Assembly (NCBI GenBank): GCA_020353515.1
Contig: CP070695.1
Coordinates: 4,128,221 to 4,189,812, forward strand
Reading direction: 5' to 3'
Source: Candidatus Heimdallarchaeota archaeon
Lineage (GTDB): Archaea > Asgardarchaeota > Heimdallarchaeia > Hodarchaeales > Hodarchaeaceae
DNA: 61,592 nt
In this document: positions 27,953 to 38,323 of the stretch, piece after piece
Layout: each line of letters opens with the position of its first letter
Numbering within the stretch: position 1 is the first letter of the stretch
Notes under the pieces: model-generated
Told to the model about the DNA's origin: nothing
Databases searched by the model: none
What the model saw: the letters and a program-made list of their open reading frames with translations, nothing else
Program-made: the position numbers and the translations under genes

Positions 27953-29434
27953 TCAGACCAGCTTGTGTGTAAAATGGTAAAAACCACTTGTTTCGTATAG
28001 AAATAATACAATGATGACTACAGCAATCAGGCTGAGTCCAAAACAAAAAAGAAATAGTCCAATAATTCCCGCAGGTCCCAAGCTGACAAAGTATCCTCCA
28101 ACAACAGCCCCCATGATGTTTCCCGAAGCCATAAGCGATTGAGTAAAGCCCATCTCACGTCCCCGTTGTCCCGATTTGGTTACATCACTGACTAGACCCA
28201 GAGCAGCTGAAATAAAACAAGAGGCAGAGAGACCGTAAACTATAATCATTAAGACAACAAGGATGTGAGGAATCGGGAGGGGATATTCAGGGATAAAATT
28301 CAAGGAAATTGTATCTGTTAATGATAATGGGTTTCTTATCATATTAGACAATTCAGAAAGTTCCCATACTTGTATTCCATTCACAGATTTATAATCAAGG
28401 ATGGAAGCAAGTGTTACTAAAAGCATACTAGTGCCAACAATTCCAATTACCAAGAAGGGTTTTCGTCCCACGTTATCAGAAAGTCTACCTAATATTGGTT
28501 GCATTATTCCCATTACACAAATCGCAAGAAAGCCTATTATCGCAATAGCAAATCCCACCTCTGTAACGAGGTCGAATATTATAGTGGGTGCTACAAAAGT
28601 GCTTGCTCCTATGAGTGTTGTATAAGCTAACCATGCAATGGCGAATTTTCGAAACTGTTTGTCTTGAAGACTTTCTAGCATGGTTTTAAACGGATTTATG
28701 TCAATTTCTGAATCTGTTACAGTTTGAGTGAAATCTGTTAGCAATATATCAGCTTCTTCATCTAGAACTAAATCTTTACGAGGCTCAAAGAACCTAAACG
28801 CATAAATTGACGTGGCCAAGAACATTATGATCGCAAAGAAGAAGAATGAGTCCTCTTTTAAGATCGTCCATGAAATTAAACCAAATGGATTCCCAATAGC
28901 TCCCCCAGCAGCTTTTGCTAAATAGAATTTTCCCATTGTCTCACCATGCCTTTCATCAGGGGATAAATCTGCAATTACTGCTAATATTGGTCCTGAAATC
29001 ATAGCAGCAGCTAATCCTTTCAACCCATTCGAGAGGACTAAAACTAGAAAACTAAATGGGAGAGTAGCATAGTAAGGATACATAATGGGGAAAATAAGAA
29101 AGGAAATACCTGCTAATGCTGTTCCAATAATTAAAAATGGCCGTCGTCCAAAACGATCACTAATCATTCCGAAAAATGATGCAGTTGACAATGAAACGAA
29201 ATAGTAACTAGCTACAATTATTGCGGTTTCGACCCCCACCATTGTCGTTCCACTTTTTTCGCCCAATTCCCGAAGGTATAGGGGTAAACCAAACGCTGCA
29301 GAAGCAAAAGCACATTCTGTTACGGCTACAGCAATATAAAGAATCATACTTTGCTTCTTTAACAAAAAGGTAATGGGTTGTCCAATGAAATGCAGGGTGT
29401 CTCTAGTGTATTTTGATATTAAACGACGTGGCAC
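27953..29434 (-). CDS. MFS transporter
   Basis: Motif A GMISDRFGRR and GRLSDNVGRK; 12 TM helices. Confidence 0.92.
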   Translation of the reverse strand: MPRRLISKYTRDTLHFIGQPITFLLKKQSMILYIAVAVTECAFASAAFGLPLYLRELGEKSGTTMVGVETAIIVASYYFVSLSTASFFGMISDRFGRRPFLIIGTALAGISFLIFPIMYPYYATLPFSFLVLVLSNGLKGLAAAMISGPILAVIADLSPDERHGETMGKFYLAKAAGGAIGNPFGLISWTILKEDSFFFFAIIMFLATSIYAFRFFEPRKDLVLDEEADILLTDFTQTVTDSEIDINPFKTMLESLQDKQFRKFAIAWLAYTTLIGASTFVAPTIIFDLVTEVGFAIAIIGFLAICVMGIMQPILGRLSDNVGRKPFLVIGIVGTSMLLVTLASILDYKSVNGIQVWELSELSNMIRNPLSLTDTISLNFIPEYPLPIPHILVVLMIIVYGLSASCFISAALGLVSDVTKSGQRGREMGFTQSLMASGNIMGAVVGGYFVSLGPAGIIGLFLFCFGLSLIAVVIIVLFLYETSGFYHFTHKLV

Positions 29435-29696: not shown

Positions 29697-30599
29697 ATGA
29701 AAATTTCGCTTGTCGGACTAAGTGGCTGCGGTAAAACATCGATTTATTCGACCACATTAGGTGGAATGGCTCCTATGGATGTCAAGGACCTAGGACCAAC
29801 AGTTATGTATGAAGTTAAGTCCCATAATTATTTAGGCCTTCAAATATCTCTTTGGGATTTTGGGGGACAGGAGAAATACAGGCAATCTTATCTGGAAACA
29901 CCGAAACTTCTAGCAAATACAACAATTCTTGTCTTTGTACTGGATCTACATCACCCAGAAGATTTTAAGAAAGCTGATAATTACTTTAAAGAGGTTTTCT
30001 CTGCTATTAAGGAAAGTGGGGGAGACCCCCGTATAATAATTTTCTATCACAAGTATGATACCGAGGAATATCCAAAGGAACAGCTTGAAGGAAATTTAGA
30101 CAAAGCCAGAGAACTACCATTTATCAGTGAGATCGACCCTGAATCTTTCATTACATCTATTTATCGTCAAGAAGAATTAAGTGAGGTATTTCGTCAGATC
30201 CTGATTTCAGACTTCGATGAATTAAGGGACAGCGTTGAACATGCCCAAAAACACCTTATGAAATTAAATTCAAAAATCATTGTCAGCGATGTGAATGGGA
30301 ATGTTATCACTCACAGTATCAAGGGATTTTCCACAGGAATCCAACTTCGTGAGGATTTACGTGATTATATTCTTTCTTGTAATGTTCTGCGGGAGAATTT
30401 CCTCACCAGTGATTCAGCTTCTTTTTCTGCCATCTCAGACACAAAGAAATTGAAATTACACATTTTTAGCTTTGTTCTAGCTGTACTCATTATGGTAGAT
30501 GAGGGTGCAGCAATTGATCCTCCAGAAGATATCGAAGCTTTGTTAACAGATATGAAAGTTTTTGCAGAATTAATTATCGATGCTAGCAGAGAAGAATAA
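29697..30599 (+). CDS. Rag/Arf-like small GTPase with C-terminal roadblock/longin-like domain
   Basis: GLSGCGKT, PT, WDFGGQ, HKYD, TSI; tail IIVSDVNGNVI. Confidence 0.88.
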   Translation: MKISLVGLSGCGKTSIYSTTLGGMAPMDVKDLGPTVMYEVKSHNYLGLQISLWDFGGQEKYRQSYLETPKLLANTTILVFVLDLHHPEDFKKADNYFKEVFSAIKESGGDPRIIIFYHKYDTEEYPKEQLEGNLDKARELPFISEIDPESFITSIYRQEELSEVFRQILISDFDELRDSVEHAQKHLMKLNSKIIVSDVNGNVITHSIKGFSTGIQLREDLRDYILSCNVLRENFLTSDSASFSAISDTKKLKLHIFSFVLAVLIMVDEGAAIDPPEDIEALLTDMKVFAELIIDASREE

Positions 30600-30633: not shown

Positions 30634-32109
30634 TTATTTTTGTAAGAGCTCTGCTACAGATACTTTTTTCGTGAGAAGCTTACCTTCCGTATCAGTTAGA
30701 CTCACCATATATTCACTATCGTCATTAAAACGTGGGAATTCGAAATCTAGTGCCTCTGCAGGGAACCATTCACGAATGGTAGTCTCCCAGTTATGACTTT
30801 CAAATAACTCTCCTGCCAACAGAGTTATCCGAACTTGAACTCGTTCTAGAACCTTTCCACTGCGATTTTGTAGAGTAACTTGGATGCTACGACCTTCATC
30901 TACGAGATTTGTGCTTTGTATGCGAACTAACCTGCGTTTTCTAATCCCACTGACTCCTTTTTCTACCAAAATTTCTCTTGATGGAAGAGGTTGACGTTCA
31001 GCGGGTAGAGTTGAGGGGACTTGGAATGCAAATGATCGACGCCGATTGACGGTGTATAGCTGGACCTTTTTTAGATTTGCAAGTCTCAATACTGGTGTGA
31101 GTTGTTTTACTGTAATTGGTTGAAGTTTGATATAACCGTTGTCAGCAGCATCTTGAAGGATTTCTAATCCTAGTCCTGTACGAACGAGTACGGTATTGTA
31201 TCCCTCAGGAGCTCCAACTGAGCCAACACTAATGTCCGCATTCTCACTAGAAAAGTCAACACAATAATGGCAGGAGCTAGCTCGCAATCTGTCCATTTCT
31301 TTTACTGGATGACTGATTGACTCTCCGCTCTCTTGAATCATATGAAATTTCCCTTTAGAAATTGTCATTTTTTCAATATCTTCCATGGGGATTTTATCGA
31401 CTTCCTCGACAAAATGGCGTAATCTGTCGTAAGAAAAAGCATCCATACAAAAAAGTCCAATTTTTAGAACTGAACTACGCATGAATAATCGAACAAGTCC
31501 ATATGGAGAACTTTGCATCTTCTTTACAGCGTCAATATTGCAAGGACATCCTACAAAAGCAATAGAATTCAATCCAGATTTAATAGCTTCAAGAAGTTTT
31601 CCCACTGCTGAACTTTGACTGTATATGGACCCTGAAGAAGCCAATATTTGATCTTCTTCAGTAGCAATGATAGGTTTTGGTTTCCAATACTCAATTTCAT
31701 CTTTTTTTGTTAAGACAGCTCCATCAATCATTCCCTCACGTAATAGATAGATCAGTAAGCTGGTCACTACTCCTCCATCTTGGCCAGTAACTTCTGAGAG
31801 AAGACTTTTTGCTCGAAAAGCTTCAATGAAATTACCAATTAGCTGAGGAACAGTAGTCTTGGTCTTGGGACATTGGTGGATACAGACCCCACAAGCAGTA
31901 CATTTTCCTGTCAAGCGTGGACGATCATTAATCATTTCTAACGCGTTTTCGACACATGAAGCAACACAAGCCCCACAGGCACTACATAATCCAGTATCTA
32001 TAACTTGTTTCTTCAAAGTGGCAAATTTTGCTTCTTTACTCCCCTGTAACTTACGCTTAGACAATCGATAACTAATTAACTGGTCTTCTTCTTGGTTAAT
32101 TTCCGTCAT
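30634..32109 (-). CDS. FrhB/FdhB-family F420-interacting flavo-FeS protein with N-terminal 2x[4Fe-4S] and an extra C-terminal beta domain
   Basis: CSACGACVASC, CTACGVCIHQCP, GQDGGVVT, VGCPC, IGLFC, CHYCVD, ADISVG; ~120-aa C-terminal extension. Confidence 0.88.
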   Translation of the reverse strand: MTEINQEEDQLISYRLSKRKLQGSKEAKFATLKKQVIDTGLCSACGACVASCVENALEMINDRPRLTGKCTACGVCIHQCPKTKTTVPQLIGNFIEAFRAKSLLSEVTGQDGGVVTSLLIYLLREGMIDGAVLTKKDEIEYWKPKPIIATEEDQILASSGSIYSQSSAVGKLLEAIKSGLNSIAFVGCPCNIDAVKKMQSSPYGLVRLFMRSSVLKIGLFCMDAFSYDRLRHFVEEVDKIPMEDIEKMTISKGKFHMIQESGESISHPVKEMDRLRASSCHYCVDFSSENADISVGSVGAPEGYNTVLVRTGLGLEILQDAADNGYIKLQPITVKQLTPVLRLANLKKVQLYTVNRRRSFAFQVPSTLPAERQPLPSREILVEKGVSGIRKRRLVRIQSTNLVDEGRSIQVTLQNRSGKVLERVQVRITLLAGELFESHNWETTIREWFPAEALDFEFPRFNDDSEYMVSLTDTEGKLLTKKVSVAELLQK

Positions 32110-32146
32110 CTTTTTTCATCCATATACTAGTTAGTTGTCTGAATCA

Positions 32147-32578
32147 TTAATCATTGTGGGAGAACTCTTCTGGAGGCGAAGAATGAGGCTCTAATGAACT
32201 GAAAGCAGCAATTAAGTCATGTGTAGTAATAATTCCTACCAATTCAAAAGTATCGGGATCTTTCACAAGAACTCTCTTGATATTATGTTTATACATCAAC
32301 AGTAAGACATCTTTAATTGTTTCTCTTAAAGAAATCGTAATAAGGTTGGTTGTAGCTATGTCCTTTGCTATTACTTCACAAGGATCTTGACAGTTTAAAA
32401 TGACTCTCTCAATAATGTCTCGTTTTGTAATAATTCCTATCGGTTCCTGATCCTGATGTACTAAGACTGAACCAATATGATTTTCGGCCATTAATTGAGC
32501 AACCTTTTCAAGACTGTCATTGGCAGTCACAGCAACTATTTCTTTTTTCATTAGATCCTTAACTCTGGTTGAATACAC
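32147..32578 (-). CDS. Stand-alone CBS-pair protein
   Basis: VKDLM, IGSVLV, GIITKRDI, IKRVLV, GIITTHDL. Confidence 0.9.
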   Translation of the reverse strand: MYSTRVKDLMKKEIVAVTANDSLEKVAQLMAENHIGSVLVHQDQEPIGIITKRDIIERVILNCQDPCEVIAKDIATTNLITISLRETIKDVLLLMYKHNIKRVLVKDPDTFELVGIITTHDLIAAFSSLEPHSSPPEEFSHND

Positions 32579-32589
32579 AATATAACACC

Positions 32590-33624
32590 CTAACCTATGA
32601 TTCTTTTTACTCTTATGGTTCCTTTTTCGTCCTCAACCTTTAGGAAATATATTATTCCACTTGAATCAGCTAGTTCAAATTCAATTAAAACATCCTGATT
32701 TGGCGCCCATTCCTTTATCTCTGAAATAAGGATGTCCTTACCAAAAAAGCCCTGCGATTCATATATTTTGAGAAGAGCGTTCACAATTAGATTTGAACTG
32801 CTATTGCGAACTGTTACTTGAACCCGTTTATCATCTTCAGAATGTTTTATATTTGTAACTCTTACACGTTTTGGTTCGGGAGCTAGAGTTACATCTGGTT
32901 TTTCTTTACTAATTTCATGTTTGTGACTTGTTGGTATTGAAAATCGTAATCGGGGTTTTTTAGCGGGTTTCTGTATTTGTGATTCATGAGTAGGTGTAGT
33001 TGATGCTCCATTTGTGTCTCCTATGACACTTTCTTCCAATTGACCTTCAAGTTTAGTTATAGGCATTTTCGGAATTAACGAAATACATAATCTAATAAGC
33101 TCGTGTTCAATATCATCGGATTTCTTCTTCAGAAATTCTTCAACGTCCGAATTTTCCTGTTTTTTCAGGTGAAGTTCTACAAGAAAACATAAATTTTCTC
33201 CAATAGAACCTTGTATTCTGGTCTTTAACTCGTGTAATATTTCTTGAGCTATAAAAGAGACTGTAGAAGGAGCTTTTACAATTAAAACAAATCTTTCTGC
33301 TTGCCATTTCTTCGATTCCATTCCCTCTCGTCTTTTAATTCTTCTAGTTTCACATAAAATGAGAGTTCCACAGTAGATAACACCTCCCAATTCAAGATCT
33401 ATTGAAATAAACTTGTCTGTTTCTAGAAATCTATCTTGGTGCCACCAAATACTGTGTATGGAAATAATCTCTTTTTCGTTCTTATTATTCAATAATTGCT
33501 TAGGGTATGAAAAGAGGGGAACATGACCTTGAACTTCGTCAAAAAAGTAGAGAAAAAAGCCATAAGAATCATCTATATTTGATTGGTCAATATCTGTAAA
33601 TGCAGAAAGGTCCCCATATCTCAT
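32590..33624 (-). CDS. Longin/uDENN-like protein A with shared C-terminal beta domain
   Basis: GFFLYFFDEVQGHVPLFSYP N-terminus (FD-x3-G-x5/6-YP, NPRL2/uDENN-like); C-domain aligns with its neighbours. Confidence 0.65.
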   Translation of the reverse strand: MRYGDLSAFTDIDQSNIDDSYGFFLYFFDEVQGHVPLFSYPKQLLNNKNEKEIISIHSIWWHQDRFLETDKFISIDLELGGVIYCGTLILCETRRIKRREGMESKKWQAERFVLIVKAPSTVSFIAQEILHELKTRIQGSIGENLCFLVELHLKKQENSDVEEFLKKKSDDIEHELIRLCISLIPKMPITKLEGQLEESVIGDTNGASTTPTHESQIQKPAKKPRLRFSIPTSHKHEISKEKPDVTLAPEPKRVRVTNIKHSEDDKRVQVTVRNSSSNLIVNALLKIYESQGFFGKDILISEIKEWAPNQDVLIEFELADSSGIIYFLKVEDEKGTIRVKRIIG

Positions 33625-33746
33625 ATCTAATTTTTTCTCCTTTTATTTGAGATTAGACTATTTTTGCATGACTTTAAGACTTTTCTATAACACTTTTCAT
33701 CGTTTTTTATACTGATTTTATCTTTCCTGAGAATCGCAAAGGTTAG

Positions 33747-34685
33747 TTAGACATTGTTTATACCAACCTTAAGAGACTTAATGTCGATTGTTGTTTTCTT
33801 ACTACTGATTATAATTAAGTAATTTTCAACCATTTCCATTCTGGGAAACTCTAAAATTAAATCTTCTTTGAAAGGCCACTCCTCAAGCTCTTGTTCCCAA
33901 ATGGGTTCACTAAAAAATTCAGTTCTTTTTGATACTTGAATTTTAACATCCTTTAGATTCTCACTCTGATTGACTAATACTACCATTATTCCCTGATCAT
34001 TGGTTTCTGATAACAAAACTCGCATTGTAATTTTTTGCTTAAATAAATCGTGAGCACAATGACTTGTTTCTATTGGAATCTTTGATGAATCGGCTTGGTT
34101 TGGGATTATCTCTGGAGTAAATGTTTCAAACTTCTGATTAACGCGAATCACAAATTCCTTCCATGTAGTTTTCAATATCTGATCGATTTTTGCTGTTTGT
34201 TTCACTAATTCTTTATATTCTCGCTTTCTAATTGGATTTGCTTCTAATTCTTCACACTTATACAACAATTCGAGACCTGAACCGAGATTCGATTCTAATG
34301 TGGTTTTAAAATCAATAAAAGCGTTCATTGGAATGGGATTAATATCTTTCCAATTTTTTATAACGATACCATAAATTGGGGTGTCTTCTGCTGTTGTCCC
34401 TTCTTGTGAGGTCGTTTGAAGCTGAAAAGCTGAATAAACGAATTCAGAAAATTTCAGGTCAATACGAAGAGGCACATTTTCTATTTTCCATACACAGTGT
34501 GTCTTCAGAATGTTAATCTCGTTCTTGTCATGCTGTAATTTTGAAGGATAAGAAAAGAGGATCTGAAGACCATTAGTAGTATCAAAGGAACATAAAAAAA
34601 ACCCTAATAAACCCACTTTTGACTGAAAAGTTGGCTTTTCTGGTGTTGTTTTGATATTCGTTTCAAAAAAAGGATCGATATTCAT
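33747..34685 (-). CDS. Longin/uDENN-like protein B with shared C-terminal beta domain (paralog of A)
   Basis: GFFLCSFDTTNGLQILFSYP; KNE..I...H..W..IDL shared with A. Confidence 0.65.
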   Translation of the reverse strand: MNIDPFFETNIKTTPEKPTFQSKVGLLGFFLCSFDTTNGLQILFSYPSKLQHDKNEINILKTHCVWKIENVPLRIDLKFSEFVYSAFQLQTTSQEGTTAEDTPIYGIVIKNWKDINPIPMNAFIDFKTTLESNLGSGLELLYKCEELEANPIRKREYKELVKQTAKIDQILKTTWKEFVIRVNQKFETFTPEIIPNQADSSKIPIETSHCAHDLFKQKITMRVLLSETNDQGIMVVLVNQSENLKDVKIQVSKRTEFFSEPIWEQELEEWPFKEDLILEFPRMEMVENYLIIISSKKTTIDIKSLKVGINNV

Positions 34686-35072
34686 CGTTTCTCCTTACAA
34701 TTTTCATTGATTGAAGAAAATAAGTCTTTTTGGAAAAGTTTTCAGTTGAGGACGATAACTCTCTTCAACTTCAAAAGTTTTCGCAAATACCATGTAAGTA
34801 TTTTTTATAAAACTAATAATCAATAAGAGTCTTTATACTGATCTATTGTTTTTTTTGGACTTTTCTATAAAAGCTAAACGACTAAATAGAGAAATTCCTT
34901 TTTAGACATTAGGAAAAGTCAAGTTTTTGAAATAAAGAAATAACCTCATTAGATTCAAAATCGTAGGAAAATTCTTTCTTTCTTGAAACATAATTTTTTA
35001 GTATATCTACATGAAATCACCCTAATAGAAATAAATAATCAAATAACTCTCATAAACTTGGAGAAGAATATT

Positions 35073-36905
35073 TTGAGTTCACAGTTATGGGATCTCGTCG
35101 TTGTAGGAGGAGGGCCAGCGGGACTTTCCGGTGCAATTAGGGCTGCAGAGTTAGGTCTTCATGTTCTTGTTCTCGAAGCGCGTTCTGGAATAGCTACTGC
35201 AGGCAGTATGGCTGTAGATGGCTATCCTGGCTTTTTCAGCATAACCCGTCAAGAACTATTAGATAAAATGGCCAAGCAAGCAAAGTACCATGCAACAATA
35301 AATTATGCAGAAAAAGTGAGTAGACTTGAATTAAAAGATCCTATTAAGCGGGTATATACCCAAGTTACAAGAGGAGAATTCTTTACTGAAGAATTCAAGT
35401 ACAACTGTAGGGCAGTATTAATTGCAACAGGTCTTCAGCCTAAAAAGCTTGATATCCCAGGAGAGGGAAAATTCAAGGATAAAGGAGTCTATTATTCTCT
35501 TCCTGATGGAGACTACACCGATAAAAATGTTGCTATCATAGGACACACATCCTGGGCTGTCCGAAATGCTCTACATTATGATGCCATAGGAGCACATGTG
35601 TACCTGATTACTTCACGAGATTCGTTTGATGCTCATCCAGCACTCATGAGAAAATTAAATGAAAGTTTTGTTGAAGTTCTTTATTCACATGAAGCATTAT
35701 ATTTCGAGGGCACTGATAAGTTAACAAAAACACGTCTTAAAAGTGCAGATGGAAAACAATTCTCTATTTTAGCAGAAATGGTACTCATTCTGAGTAGTAA
35801 GAATACTAACCGTGAGTTATTTCAAGATGCAGGATTAACAACTACCCCTCAAGGAAGAATTATTGTAGAATCCTCCAATCAAGATACAAATATCCCTGGT
35901 GTATTTGCAGCGGGTAGCGCAACAAGAGGGGACTCAATAGTGGGTGTTGGGGCCGCAGAAGGCATTAAAGCCGCAGAAGAAATTTCAAGGTACCTAACTA
36001 AGCTTGAAGAGAAAGAATCCCTTGCAGAAAAAGAGAAAGAAACACCTATGCTTGTTGAGAGGTTCACTGAAGGAAGATGTGTCATCATTGATAAAAAAGA
36101 TTTATCTCCAGAAATAGTTAAGTGGGTAGTTAAGGCACCTTTAGTTGCAGAAAAAACTCAACCAGGACAGTTTGTCATTCTCCGAGTAACTCAGGATGGA
36201 GAACGAATCCCATTAACTGTTGCTGATAATGATAAAGAAAAAGGTACAATTACTCTAATTTTTCAAAAGATTGGAAAGAGTACCAAGCTTATGGGGACGA
36301 TGAAAGCTGGCGATCACATTCTTAATCTCTTGGGGCCCTTGGGAAGACCTGTGAAAATTGAGAAATGGGGTACCGTCGCTGTTCTTGGTGGTGGTTGCGG
36401 TGTTGCTCCAGTATTGCCTAAAACCAAAGCTTTGAAAGAAAAAGGAAACTATGTAGTAAGTATTATTTCAGCCAGAACATCTCCACTTTTAATATGTCAA
36501 GAAGAGATGCGGGAGGCGAGTAATGAGCTTCATATTGCAACTGATGACGGGACAGAGGGTCATCACGGATTTGGACTTGATCTCTTAAAGCGCTTTGTTG
36601 AAGAAGGAAGACATTTTGATCATGTTGTAGCAGTTGGGCCAATTCCAATGATGAAGTTTACCTGTGCTTTCACTAAAGAACATAATATTCCAACAACTGT
36701 TAGTCTAGCACCTATAATGGTCGATGGTACTGGAATGTGTGGGGCTTGCCGTGTAACTGTTGGTGGTGAGGTTAAGTTCGCCTGTGTTGATGGTCCTAAT
36801 TTTGATGGATTAAAGGTGGATTTTGAAGAATTGACACTTAGATCAAGGGCTTATCTTTATGAGGAGCGTATTTCCAGTGGGAAAATGGCTCGAGAAAAAC
36901 CATAG
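35073..36905 (+). CDS. nfnA: Fusion of a CxxC-less thioredoxin-reductase-like flavoprotein and NfnA/SudB
   Basis: N-half GGGPAG, ATG, GVYYSLPDG, TNIPGVFAAGS; C-half PGQFVILR, ERIPLT, GPLG, MVDGTGMCGAC, CVDGP; likely TTG start at 35073 after GGAG. Confidence 0.85.
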   Translation: MSSQLWDLVVVGGGPAGLSGAIRAAELGLHVLVLEARSGIATAGSMAVDGYPGFFSITRQELLDKMAKQAKYHATINYAEKVSRLELKDPIKRVYTQVTRGEFFTEEFKYNCRAVLIATGLQPKKLDIPGEGKFKDKGVYYSLPDGDYTDKNVAIIGHTSWAVRNALHYDAIGAHVYLITSRDSFDAHPALMRKLNESFVEVLYSHEALYFEGTDKLTKTRLKSADGKQFSILAEMVLILSSKNTNRELFQDAGLTTTPQGRIIVESSNQDTNIPGVFAAGSATRGDSIVGVGAAEGIKAAEEISRYLTKLEEKESLAEKEKETPMLVERFTEGRCVIIDKKDLSPEIVKWVVKAPLVAEKTQPGQFVILRVTQDGERIPLTVADNDKEKGTITLIFQKIGKSTKLMGTMKAGDHILNLLGPLGRPVKIEKWGTVAVLGGGCGVAPVLPKTKALKEKGNYVVSIISARTSPLLICQEEMREASNELHIATDDGTEGHHGFGLDLLKRFVEEGRHFDHVVAVGPIPMMKFTCAFTKEHNIPTTVSLAPIMVDGTGMCGACRVTVGGEVKFACVDGPNFDGLKVDFEELTLRSRAYLYEERISSGKMAREKP

Positions 36906-36919
36906 AAGGAATAAAAGCG

Positions 36920-38323
36920 ATGTCTAAACGAAAACAGACAAAGAAACAACGAATTCGTATGCAGATTCAAGATTCAGGTGAACGAATTCGAAATTTTGAA
37001 GAAGTTGCCCTAGGATTTACTGAAGAGGAGGCAATAGAGGAAGCTTCGCGGTGCCTGCAATGTAAGCGTCCACGTTGTATTCAGGGTTGTCCTGTAAGTG
37101 TACGTATACCTGAATTTATTCTCAAATTGAAAGAAGGAGATGTTGATTCTGCAAAAGAAATTATCCTTTCAACCAATAGTCTACCTGCTATAACAGGACG
37201 TGTCTGTCCCCAAGAAAACCAATGTCAAGAGTTTTGTATCCACCCCAATGCTATTAGTATTGGTGCATTGGAAAGATACGTTGCAGATCATGGAAAACGT
37301 CCTGAAATCAAAACTTCCAAGAAATTACAATCCAAAATTGCAATAATTGGATCTGGTCCATCTGGATTGACTTGTGCAGCTGATCTAGCTAATTATGGTC
37401 ATGAAGTGGTATTATACGAGGCACTACATGAGTATGGTGGAGTATTGACTTATGGGATTCCAGAATTCCGAATGCCTAAACAGATTGTAAATGAGGAGGT
37501 TGAGTATGTACAAAGTTTAGGGGTTCGATTAGAAAAGGATATTCTCATAGGAAAGACCATAACTATTGATGAACTTTTAGATGAGTTCAAATTTGATGCA
37601 GTGTATATTGCTTCTGGGGCAGGAACACCAAACTTTTTGAAAATACCTGGAGAGAATTTAAAAGGAGTTTATTCCGCTAATGAATATTTAACTCGTGTAA
37701 ACCTCCTTAAAGGATATGATTTTCCCGAATATGATACTCCCGTATCAGTAGGAGAAAAAGTTGCAGTCATTGGAGCTGGTAACGTTGCAATGGATGCTGC
37801 TCGAACCTCACTCCGACTAGGAGCACGTGAAGTAGATATTATTTATCGTCGTACCGAAGGAGAATGTCCAGCCCGATTAGAGGAGATTATTCATGCAAAA
37901 GAAGAGGGAGTAGTAATCGGAGAATTGATATCCCCAGTAGAAATTCTTGGAGATAAAAAAGGGAATGTTATCGGTTTGAAGTGTTTACGGATGCAATTAG
38001 GTGAGAAGGATGATTCTGGTCGTAGAAGACCCATCCCCATACCTAATACAGAATTTATCTTCCCCGTTGACACAGTAATCATTGCTATTGGTCAAAAACC
38101 AAACCAATTAATAGCTCAAACCACACCAGGTCTCGAATCCACTAGGTGGGGTACATTGGTGCATAAGGAAGAAACAGGAGAAACAACACGAGAAAAAGTT
38201 TACACTGGGGGCGATGTCGCTACTGGAGCTGCTACAGTCATCCTTGCAATGGAAGCTGGTCGAAAAGCAGCAAAGGCAATACATGAGGTGATATTAGGGA
38301 AAACAATTGCAATTGAGAATTAA
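36920..38323 (+). CDS. nfnB: NfnB/SudA (GltD-like large subunit of NADH-dependent reduced ferredoxin:NADP+ oxidoreductase)
   Basis: CLQCKRPRCIQGCP, GRVCPQENQC, GSGPSG, GAGNVAMD, YRR, GGD; adjacent to nfnA. Confidence 0.9.
   Translation: MSKRKQTKKQRIRMQIQDSGERIRNFEEVALGFTEEEAIEEASRCLQCKRPRCIQGCPVSVRIPEFILKLKEGDVDSAKEIILSTNSLPAITGRVCPQENQCQEFCIHPNAISIGALERYVADHGKRPEIKTSKKLQSKIAIIGSGPSGLTCAADLANYGHEVVLYEALHEYGGVLTYGIPEFRMPKQIVNEEVEYVQSLGVRLEKDILIGKTITIDELLDEFKFDAVYIASGAGTPNFLKIPGENLKGVYSANEYLTRVNLLKGYDFPEYDTPVSVGEKVAVIGAGNVAMDAARTSLRLGAREVDIIYRRTEGECPARLEEIIHAKEEGVVIGELISPVEILGDKKGNVIGLKCLRMQLGEKDDSGRRRPIPIPNTEFIFPVDTVIIAIGQKPNQLIAQTTPGLESTRWGTLVHKEETGETTREKVYTGGDVATGAATVILAMEAGRKAAKAIHEVILGKTIAIEN

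Follow-up and report, generated by a model that had tools for sequence, protein, structure and literature searches.

Why would a redox enzyme and two putative regulatory proteins, encoded side by side in an archaeal genome, end in one and the same domain? This question is raised by a 61,592-nucleotide (nt) stretch of DNA from Candidatus Heimdallarchaeota archaeon (contig CP070695.1, positions 4,128,221 to 4,189,812), hereafter "the window", in which four co-directional genes on the - strand (30634-34685; coordinates are positions in the window, with "-" and "+" denoting the strand) encode protein B, protein A, a protein with a pair of CBS domains and an FrhB-like protein. A preliminary description, made from the sequence alone, had proposed that the FrhB-like protein, A and B share an unnamed C-terminal beta domain that might serve for docking. 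Here we report that the three tails are homologous, that their family occurs on a small set of host proteins across the Asgard phylum, and that the host genes are linked to the gene for a Rag/Gtr1-type GTPase (here termed Rag1). Our favored interpretation, to which we assign about an even chance of being correct, is that the domain is a tethered docking plug that gathers the redox enzyme and the longin-fold regulators A and B around Rag1.

The genomes of Asgard archaea are rich in genes for Rag-, Arf- and Rab-like GTPases and for longin, roadblock and arrestin proteins, and to our knowledge few of these GTPases have been paired with their regulators. According to Tran et al. (PMC10933270), the regulators of a GTPase can seldom be told from the layout of the genome. 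In the case described here, gene order, co-distribution and a private shared domain tie one Rag-type GTPase to a defined set of proteins (i.e., a putatively NPRL2-like longin together with either an arrestin or a further longin, plus a CBS protein and a redox enzyme), and this partner set makes the input and the regulators of an archaeal Rag testable by pull-down and GTPase assays. There is nothing unusual about the fold of the domain, and Asgard archaea were already known to have Rag GTPases and NPRL2-like longins; the searchable literature yielded no account of the shared domain, of its FrhB- and NfnB-type hosts or of the conserved FrhB-Rag-arrestin/longin unit.

Three neighboring proteins end in homologous domains

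The last 91 to 98 residues of the FrhB-like protein, A and B align with one another as homologues. When the tails were compared with each other by BLASTP, the three E values were 3e-6, 3e-7 and 3e-7, with identities of 24-29%. For a cross-type comparison, one profile was built for each host type from orthologues only, with the sequences of the window excluded, and was searched against the 14,528 six-frame open reading frames (ORFs) of at least 60 amino acids in the organism's own 4.94-Mb genome. The FrhB-type profile recovered the other two types at E values of 1.7e-11 and 1.3e-9, the A-type profile at 3.7e-17 and 1.2e-13, and the B-type profile at 6e-9 and 9e-9. Apart from one weak match, no further ORF of the genome was found by these profiles, and the genome carries exactly three copies of the domain. 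The weak match, which was fragmentary and involved the FrhB-type tail profile (E 7e-4), was to an ORF of 1018 amino acids outside the window (G000:C1:2439934-2442987, - strand) and probably reflects chance or a repetitive protein. The central claim of the preliminary description, i.e., a C-terminal domain of approx. 95 amino acids on three neighboring proteins, is therefore borne out by these E values; its quoted peptides were found in the - strand ORFs that it had named, and the envelopes of the hidden Markov model (HMM) matches lie close to its boundaries (Table 1).

Over all hosts, four positions are invariant or nearly so in an alignment of 102 sequences, namely N22, F43, W55 and E59 (numbering of the FrhB tail). 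N22 is located at the end of strand 2 within an N-x-S motif, while F43 falls in the least confident loop of the structural model described below.

The shared domain is predicted to be a tethered Ig-like sandwich

An AlphaFold2 model of the domain (m07985172a450; 102-sequence alignment) has a predicted local distance difference test (pLDDT) score of 92.6 and a predicted template modeling (pTM) score of 0.83, and contains seven strands and a short C-terminal helix; as modeled, the domain is an Ig-like seven-stranded beta-sandwich of approx. 95 residues. In a full-length model of protein A (m86c732b4bf9e), residues 205-250 show pLDDT values below 50, and the domain is thus predicted to sit on a flexible tether. 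No signal-peptide-like hydrophobic stretch was found at the N-termini of the FrhB-like protein, A or B. On all three points (an Ig-like all-beta sandwich, a flexible linker in front of it, and hosts without signal peptides), our results agree with what had been described before.

Comparisons with known folds gave generic matches. Foldseek against the PDB returned weak, mixed Ig-like matches (FlaF/FlaG, Asf1, GH3 FnIII-like, ApaG, RhoGDI and C2 domains; best E 1.3e-3), and an exhaustive VIA-align search yielded a flat list with Z scores of 8-9.7, including transglutaminase C-domains, GH2 Ig-like domains, DUF3244, FN3, HAP2 domain 3 and GAE-type domains of the BBSome. The nearest models in the ESM Atlas belong to the domain's own family, i.e., Promethearchaeota hypothetical proteins of 344-402 amino acids (template modeling (TM) score 0.73-0.87), followed by the named clusters CARDB/NPCBM_assoc (TM 0.65-0.74); the top score of an ESM Atlas feature search with the tail (0.83) was within noise.

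No Pfam or NCBIfam model matches the domain. When the 102 domain copies were scanned singly (E <= 1), the best recurrent Pfam family was Por_Secre_tail, which matched 6 of the 102 copies with E values of 0.003 or weaker, and CARDB (PF07705) was absent from the recurrent families. Comparison of the 102-sequence profile with 13 bona fide CARDB domains, which were taken from related genomes and each scored above the cut-off, by hhalign gave a probability of 1.3% (E 0.041), and the corresponding probability for both lobes of the arrestin-like host introduced below was 0.7%; by sequence, the tail is thus recognizable neither as a CARDB domain nor as a third arrestin lobe. A resemblance to CARDB, one of the folds listed earlier for comparison, holds at the level of fold and fails at the level of sequence. 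As the 102 copies gave no convincing Pfam match and the hhalign probability for CARDB was so low, we regard the domain as a sequence family of its own that has no name and whose fold is common, in line with its initial characterization as unnamed.

One alternative to a docking plug is that the domain is a localization or ligand module, which would bind membrane, lipid or a small molecule and thereby place its hosts at one site or under one signal. A near-invariant aromatic pair (FF or LF) at F43, in the loop with the lowest confidence (block pLDDT 69), would fit such a module, and C2, RhoGDI, PDE6delta and UNC119 appear in the Foldseek results beside many others of equal standing (E 5e-4 to 7e-3). 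However, dozens of unrelated Ig-like domains match at least as well. Moreover, Rag1 ends in ...DASREE and carries no prenylation motif, so that a lipid-tail mechanism of the RhoGDI/PDE6delta type would have no obvious substrate. We consider a localization or ligand role to be quite unlikely.

The domain is linked to and co-distributed with a Rag-type GTPase

The distribution of the domain was assessed with two successive profiles. A profile built from the three window sequences found it in every one of the 21 genus members but in no other genome of the class, and in 68 proteins among 1.84 billion representatives. The confinement to the genus that this suggested was overturned by the later 102-sequence profile, which recovered it from 183 of the 400 Asgard genomes, most often in three copies. 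In some families (our numbering) the domain is near-universal, i.e., it was found in 130 of the 135 genomes of f20 and in all genomes of f13-f17 and f21; within the window's own class it was still seen only in the own genus. What had been presented as a peculiarity of three neighboring proteins is instead an Asgard-wide family. Close relatives with the domain are labeled as Hodarchaeota or Heimdallarchaeota metagenome-assembled genomes (MAGs), including "Candidatus Hodarchaeum mangrovi" and B3_Heim, and distant carriers are labeled as Helarchaeota, Jordarchaeia, Freyarchaeota, Sigynarchaeum, Promethearchaeia, Hermodarchaeota and Thorarchaeota.

The set of hosts is always small, comprising an FrhB-like protein, an NPRL2-like longin, either an arrestin/Vps26-like protein (termed T3) or the second longin B, and an NfnB/GltD-like protein. 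In distant lineages, the gene for the domain-bearing FrhB-like protein is followed by a Rag1 orthologue and by the gene for a domain-bearing arrestin-like protein of approx. 390-400 amino acids, with an A-like longin (also with the domain) and a CBS gene alongside; in Helarchaeota Hel_GB_A, the FrhB, Rag1, arrestin-like, A-like longin and CBS genes form one co-directional run. In the window, Rag1 and the FrhB-like gene are arranged tail-to-tail, with 34 nt between the end of Rag1 and the FrhB stop.

Rag1 itself is well supported as a member of its family (PF04670, 80.7 bits against a cut-off of 22), and the motifs GxxGCGKT (G1), DFGGQ (G3) and HKYD are conserved in 15 orthologues; orthologues from distant lineages are 43-52% identical. 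Among 80 loci with a Rag1 orthologue, many of whose flanks end at contig ends and whose genomes are interrelated, 74 have one or more domain-bearing ORFs no further than 7 kb away, and the hosts recorded were FrhB-like at 62, arrestin-like at 35 and NfnB-like at 8 of these loci. At the family level, Rag1 orthologues and the domain also show almost the same pattern of presence and absence: orthologues with at least 43% identity share their families (f1, f13-17, f20, f21 and f32) with the domain and were not found in families f2-f12, f19 and f22-30.

The own genome contains a second Rag1-type GTPase gene outside the window (G000:C1:1525257-1526135, + strand), whose product is 60% identical over residues 1-293. 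In addition, a Rag1 cluster with FrhB and longin/arrestin genes was observed on four contigs without an Asgard label, i.e., L076 (LJUQ01000002.1), L103, L104 and L144, which are labeled as Bacteroides sp. SM23_62_1 (Rag1 95% identical, with A and B) and as Deferrimicrobium, Thermoproteota and Bathyarchaeota MAGs; all four probably come from Asgard genomes and were mis-binned.

The hosts are a flavin/Fe-S enzyme, longin-fold proteins and an arrestin-like protein

The first 360 or so residues of the FrhB-like protein match PF04422 (E 7e-21) and PF04432 (E 2e-43), with Fer4 models at residues 36-83, and the sequence indicates a flavin/Fe-S member of the FrhB/FdhB family with both halves and the Fe-S part present. 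Solved chains of the family cover only residues 29-361 (8riu_B, E 4e-53; Fsr 7np8, E 1e-50), and no solved or NCBIfam-named FrhB member reaches into the tail. The protein scores below the NCBIfam equivalog cut-offs for true FrhB/FpoF, and no hydrogenase or formate dehydrogenase partner gene is present in the surrounding cluster.

Proteins A and B are paralogues (BLASTP over the whole length, E 5e-13, 330 columns). In the model of the A N-terminal domain, strands at residues 22-29 and 33-40 are followed by a helix (42-56), three further strands (75-79, 82-92 and 109-119) and a helix at 120-154. Foldseek matched this domain only to chains of GATOR1 and the SEA complex (E 4e-4 to 1e-3). With VIA-align, the best chains were 8fw5_B of GATOR1 (Z 10.5, 139 residues aligned) and 8adl_S of the SEA complex (Z 9.8), followed at Z 9.5-8.5 by Sec22, BLOC-3, CPLANE, FLCN-FNIP2 (6nzd_H, Z 9.3), AP sigma and a Lokiarchaeal longin. 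On the strength of these models, assignment of the A and B N-terminal domains to the longin fold appears safe; an NPRL2/3-like flavor is suggestive only, as VIA-align rows within one Z unit are tied. NCBIfam models did not match A or B, and a PDB sequence-profile search with the 53-sequence A/B family gave chance helical matches only and no related chain. Between strands 4 and 5, A-type proteins, including those from distant lineages, retain an R-x-K-x-R-x-G loop; B-type proteins have no such loop, an asymmetry that recalls catalytic and non-catalytic longin partners. That the domain is shared by an enzyme and two signaling proteins, as initially described, is confirmed as far as the sharing is concerned; the "signaling proteins" can now be specified as paralogous longins with a predicted NPRL2/NPRL3-like fold.

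The N-terminal part of the T3 host resembles arrestin/Vps26 (ESM Atlas feature score of 0.91 to Arrestin_N/C clusters; TM 0.58-0.75 to arrestin/Vps26 models), while no Pfam or NCBIfam model matched it and a PDB sequence-profile search was empty. Four cysteines, i.e., C45, C177, C179 and C186 (numbering of L047:5808-6968, + strand), are invariant in this protein and its orthologues, with a C-x-C-P...C motif, and may form a metal or redox site in the arrestin fold.

Several variations on the host genes and their neighbors were also recorded. In two lineages, A-like proteins continue past the shared domain into fused CBS domains (P0034 and L053:10777-12672). Loci of the Freyarchaeota and Jordarchaeia type contain a gene for a large Peptidase_C25 (gingipain-like) protein with CarboxypepD_reg between the genes for the domain-bearing longin and the domain-bearing FrhB-like protein (L046:9059-11080, L054:8138-10750 and L048:7639-10188, all - strand). 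In genomes of the Lokiarchaeia type, the domain-bearing A-like longin gene is followed not by a CBS gene but by a gene for a small GNAT acetyltransferase (L050:10051-10539, L051:9934-10413 and L049:9684-10178, all + strand).

The domain-bearing redox enzyme is exchanged within the genus

The window's genus lacks the arrestin-like host, and the third copy of the domain is carried by the second longin paralogue, B. In approximately half of the species of this genus, the domain-bearing FrhB-like protein is replaced, at the same position (after the CBS gene, on the opposite strand), by an NfnB/GltD-like protein of 577 amino acids that ends in the domain. The gene for this protein is located in an operon with NuoE-, NuoF-, NuoG/Fdh- and NfnA-like genes. 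These genus members keep A, B, the CBS gene and a divergent NfnAB-like gene pair, with Rag1 a few kb upstream. This Hodarchaeales variant, with a second longin instead of an arrestin, and the exchange of FrhB for NfnB are, together, what is new here.

In a quick maximum-likelihood tree of 73 domain copies, which is short and has many unresolved forks, copies group by host type, with support of 100 for B, 95 for GltD, 80 for T3 and 100 for A of the genus; the NfnB-borne copies fall within the FrhB-type group (support 85). As these copies group with the FrhB type and their gene occupies the same position, the plug seems to have moved between redox enzymes while A, B and the CBS gene stayed. The simplest reading of these sequences is that the domain was transferred from one flavin/Fe-S enzyme to another and that the rest of the system was retained. 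Domain copies are about as conserved as the bodies of their hosts, and this, together with the clustering by host type, argues for selected and non-interchangeable roles of the copies.

The same data bear on two further alternatives. First, as the preliminary description had considered, the copies might bind each other, such that a hetero-oligomer (e.g., a 1:1:1 trimer) would join the enzyme and the two adaptors with no contact between domain and GTPase. Three copies per genome represent the commonest count over a wide evolutionary range, and host-type-specific clades would be expected for non-equivalent subunits. Copy numbers of one, two, four and five also occur, however, and in family f9 the FrhB copy is the only one, which is awkward for an obligate hetero-trimer; we regard this explanation as unlikely. 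Second, local duplication might have spread the domain among neighboring genes as a passive appendage, structural or for solubility, that has no common partner. The window copies do lie within 4 kb of each other, and Ig-like sandwiches are frequent as accessory domains. Retention of the same host set across Asgard classes at 20-40% domain identity and co-occurrence with one GTPase orthologue speak against such an origin, and because the domain is as well conserved as its hosts and was transferred to another redox enzyme while its neighbors were kept, we consider a passive appendage very improbable.

One genus member with five copies (G008, 5.9 Mb) has two extra A-type genes encoding a longin with the domain, at unrelated loci (L037:5586-6611 and L038:5094-6116, both - strand).

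A docking module around Rag1 as the proposed role

A docking module best explains the combination of one tethered domain, fixed hosts, type-specific conservation, linkage and co-distribution with Rag1 and CBS genes, and host swapping. Under our proposal, the common tails would bring their hosts to one assembly (one complex or one site) centered on Rag1. In the window's genus, these hosts would be an FrhB-family flavin/Fe-S enzyme and the putatively NPRL2/3-like longins A and B, with a presumed adenine-nucleotide sensor, the CBS protein, encoded between them. The longin pair may act on the nucleotide state of Rag1, as GTPase-activating protein (GAP) or as guanine nucleotide exchange factor (GEF), and the conserved basic loop of A makes this paralogue the candidate for the catalytic subunit. 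Redox and energy (adenylate) status could be fed into the switch by the tethered enzyme and the CBS protein or, conversely, these two could be its output. A more far-reaching version, i.e., that the tail physically connects an archaeal Rag hub to the redox and energy state, with the enzyme and the CBS protein docked to a longin pair that sets the nucleotide state of Rag1, is in our estimation rather improbable. If it were true, Rag signaling would have begun as a redox/energy sensor, before lysosome and TOR existed. The link of the module to flavin/Fe-S enzymes has no known eukaryotic counterpart and, if real, would suggest an ancestral input of the Rag pathway.

The comparative data, i.e., few fixed hosts phylum-wide, the move from an FrhB-like to an NfnB-like host and the linkage to Rag1, fit the docking role that had been suggested initially; that the domain binds anything is what we infer from them. 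Its partner might be the roadblock-like half of Rag1 or other copies of the domain, and signaling might run in either direction. Several observations weigh against a docking module around Rag1. The fold is very common and every fold match is generic, and the fold is therefore uninformative about the partner. In genomes of the Lokiarchaeia type, genes for domain-bearing longins can be located 13-45 kb from the FrhB-Rag1-arrestin unit, and linkage is therefore not always tight. As the genomes compared are related, the counts given above overstate independence.

With regard to the longins, the GP motif of longin-domain GAPs is located in the loop before strand 2 (PMC12290439). In 53 A/B-type sequences, this eukaryotic motif is reduced to an invariant G33, which is followed by H, L, Q or N and never by a conserved P. 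Neither A nor B matched NPR2, Folliculin or any other Pfam family (E <= 1). The analogy to longin GAPs is thus incomplete, and the basic loop of A is a candidate counterpart of the arginine finger of NPRL2/FLCN. A single complex prediction (Rag1 with the A and B tails, FrhB tail scored; ipSAE 0.01, mark 0.32) counts neither for nor against contact.

The gene cluster in the window

The features of the cluster are listed in Table 1. Rag1, the most conserved partner gene, lies outside the coordinates covered by the preliminary description.

Table 1. Features of the Rag1-linked gene cluster in the window and parts of the encoded proteins
Feature	Position	Strand	Evidence and remarks
Shared domain, copy 1 (FrhB-like residues 394-491)	30637-30930	-	HMM envelope; cross-type profile E 3.7e-17 and 6e-9
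Shared domain, copy 2 (protein A residues 252-344)	32593-32871	-	HMM envelope; strands at 254-342 in A model, pLDDT above 90
Shared domain, copy 3 (protein B residues 222-312)	33750-34022	-	HMM envelope; cross-type profiles
FrhB-like gene	30634-32109	-	491 amino acids
FrhB-like body	30931-32109	-	2x[4Fe-4S] ferredoxin, residues 36-83; FrhB_FdhB_N, 101-173; FrhB_FdhB_C, 181-333; then linker of approx. 60 residues
CBS-pair protein	32147-32578	-	143 amino acids; starts 11 nt 3' of A and ends 37 nt 5' of FrhB; two CBS repeats (Pfam E 4e-27)
Protein A gene	32590-33624	-	344 amino acids; start 122 nt 3' of B
Protein A N-terminal part: predicted longin fold (22-119), helices (120-201), disordered linker (205-250)	32872-33624	-	Model m86c732b4bf9e
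Protein B gene	33747-34685	-	312 amino acids
Protein B N-terminal part: paralogue of A without its basic loop	34023-34685	-	BLASTP, alignment
Rag/Gtr1-type GTPase Rag1, roadblock-like C-terminal half	29697-30599	+	300 amino acids; Pfam Gtr1_RagA E 1.4e-22
NfnA-like fusion (TrxR-like + DHODB Fe-S) and NfnB/GltD-like protein	34983-38323	+	Divergent; Pfam; both without the shared domain; context only

The divergent NfnA-like/NfnB-like pair is syntenic with the A and B genes in all genus members examined. Its first gene (34983-36905, +) encodes a fusion of 640 amino acids that joins a thioredoxin-reductase-like Pyr_redox_2 module to an NfnA/DHODB-type Fe-S domain, and the NfnB/GltD-like gene (36920-38323) follows. 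On the other side of the cluster, a second Gtr1/RagA GTPase gene (26251-27327; Pfam E 6e-36) with unnamed neighbors (23521-26312) is separated from Rag1 by an MFS transporter gene (27953-29434).

Comparison with known systems

In its N-terminal 360 residues, the FrhB-like protein is like the FrhB/FdhB family, matching solved FrhB, Fsr and related chains with E values of 4e-53 to 1e-47; it differs from the family by its extra tail, its sub-equivalog scores and a cluster without a hydrogenase or formate dehydrogenase partner.

The tail resembles E-set domains of the CARDB/NPCBM_assoc/DUF11 type at the level of fold, being a seven-stranded sandwich of similar size, and the V-x-N-x-G motif of CARDB resembles the V-x-L-x-N-x-S/G of its strand 2. 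CARDB domains typically sit in secreted or S-layer proteins, whereas the shared domain is found on Fe-S and regulatory proteins of the cytoplasm, which have no signal peptides. Being a small beta-sandwich carried by a flexible hinge, the domain also recalls the appendages (GAE) of adaptin, GGA and BBSome proteins, which act as docking platforms on trafficking or regulatory proteins. BBSome chains reached VIA-align Z scores of 8.3-9.1, tied with dozens of unrelated sandwiches, and there is no sequence relationship; the adaptin-ear or TRAPP relationship raised earlier was not seen within the top 50 Foldseek or VIA-align matches of the tail, which does not exclude it.

The closest parallel may lie in the eukaryotic Rag/Gtr GTPases and their longin-domain GAP complexes, i.e., NPRL2-NPRL3 of GATOR1/SEACIT and FLCN-FNIP. 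We know of no eukaryotic counterpart of an Ig-like tail common to a longin, a redox enzyme and an arrestin-like protein, and a literature search found none; this tail sets A and B apart. A and B further differ from GATOR1 and FLCN in that they have no sequence match to NPR2/Folliculin models or to solved chains, in the reduction of the GP motif to G, and in the absence of a DENN or NPRL C-terminal domain and of DEPDC5. On the other hand, longins resembling NPRL2 and FLCN/SMCR8 had been described from Asgard archaea before (bioRxiv 10.1101/2020.10.19.343400; PMC12290439). Both systems combine a Gtr1/RagA-type GTPase that has a roadblock-like C-terminal half with two paralogous longins, whose best solved folds in our case are GATOR1 and SEA chains, with FLCN-FNIP close behind, and the presence of a basic loop on one paralogue only recalls the asymmetry described for NPRL2/NPRL3 and FLCN/FNIP (PMC12290439). 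By this analogy, the module described here may be an archaeal relative of the eukaryotic nutrient switch, with a partner set that can be tested.

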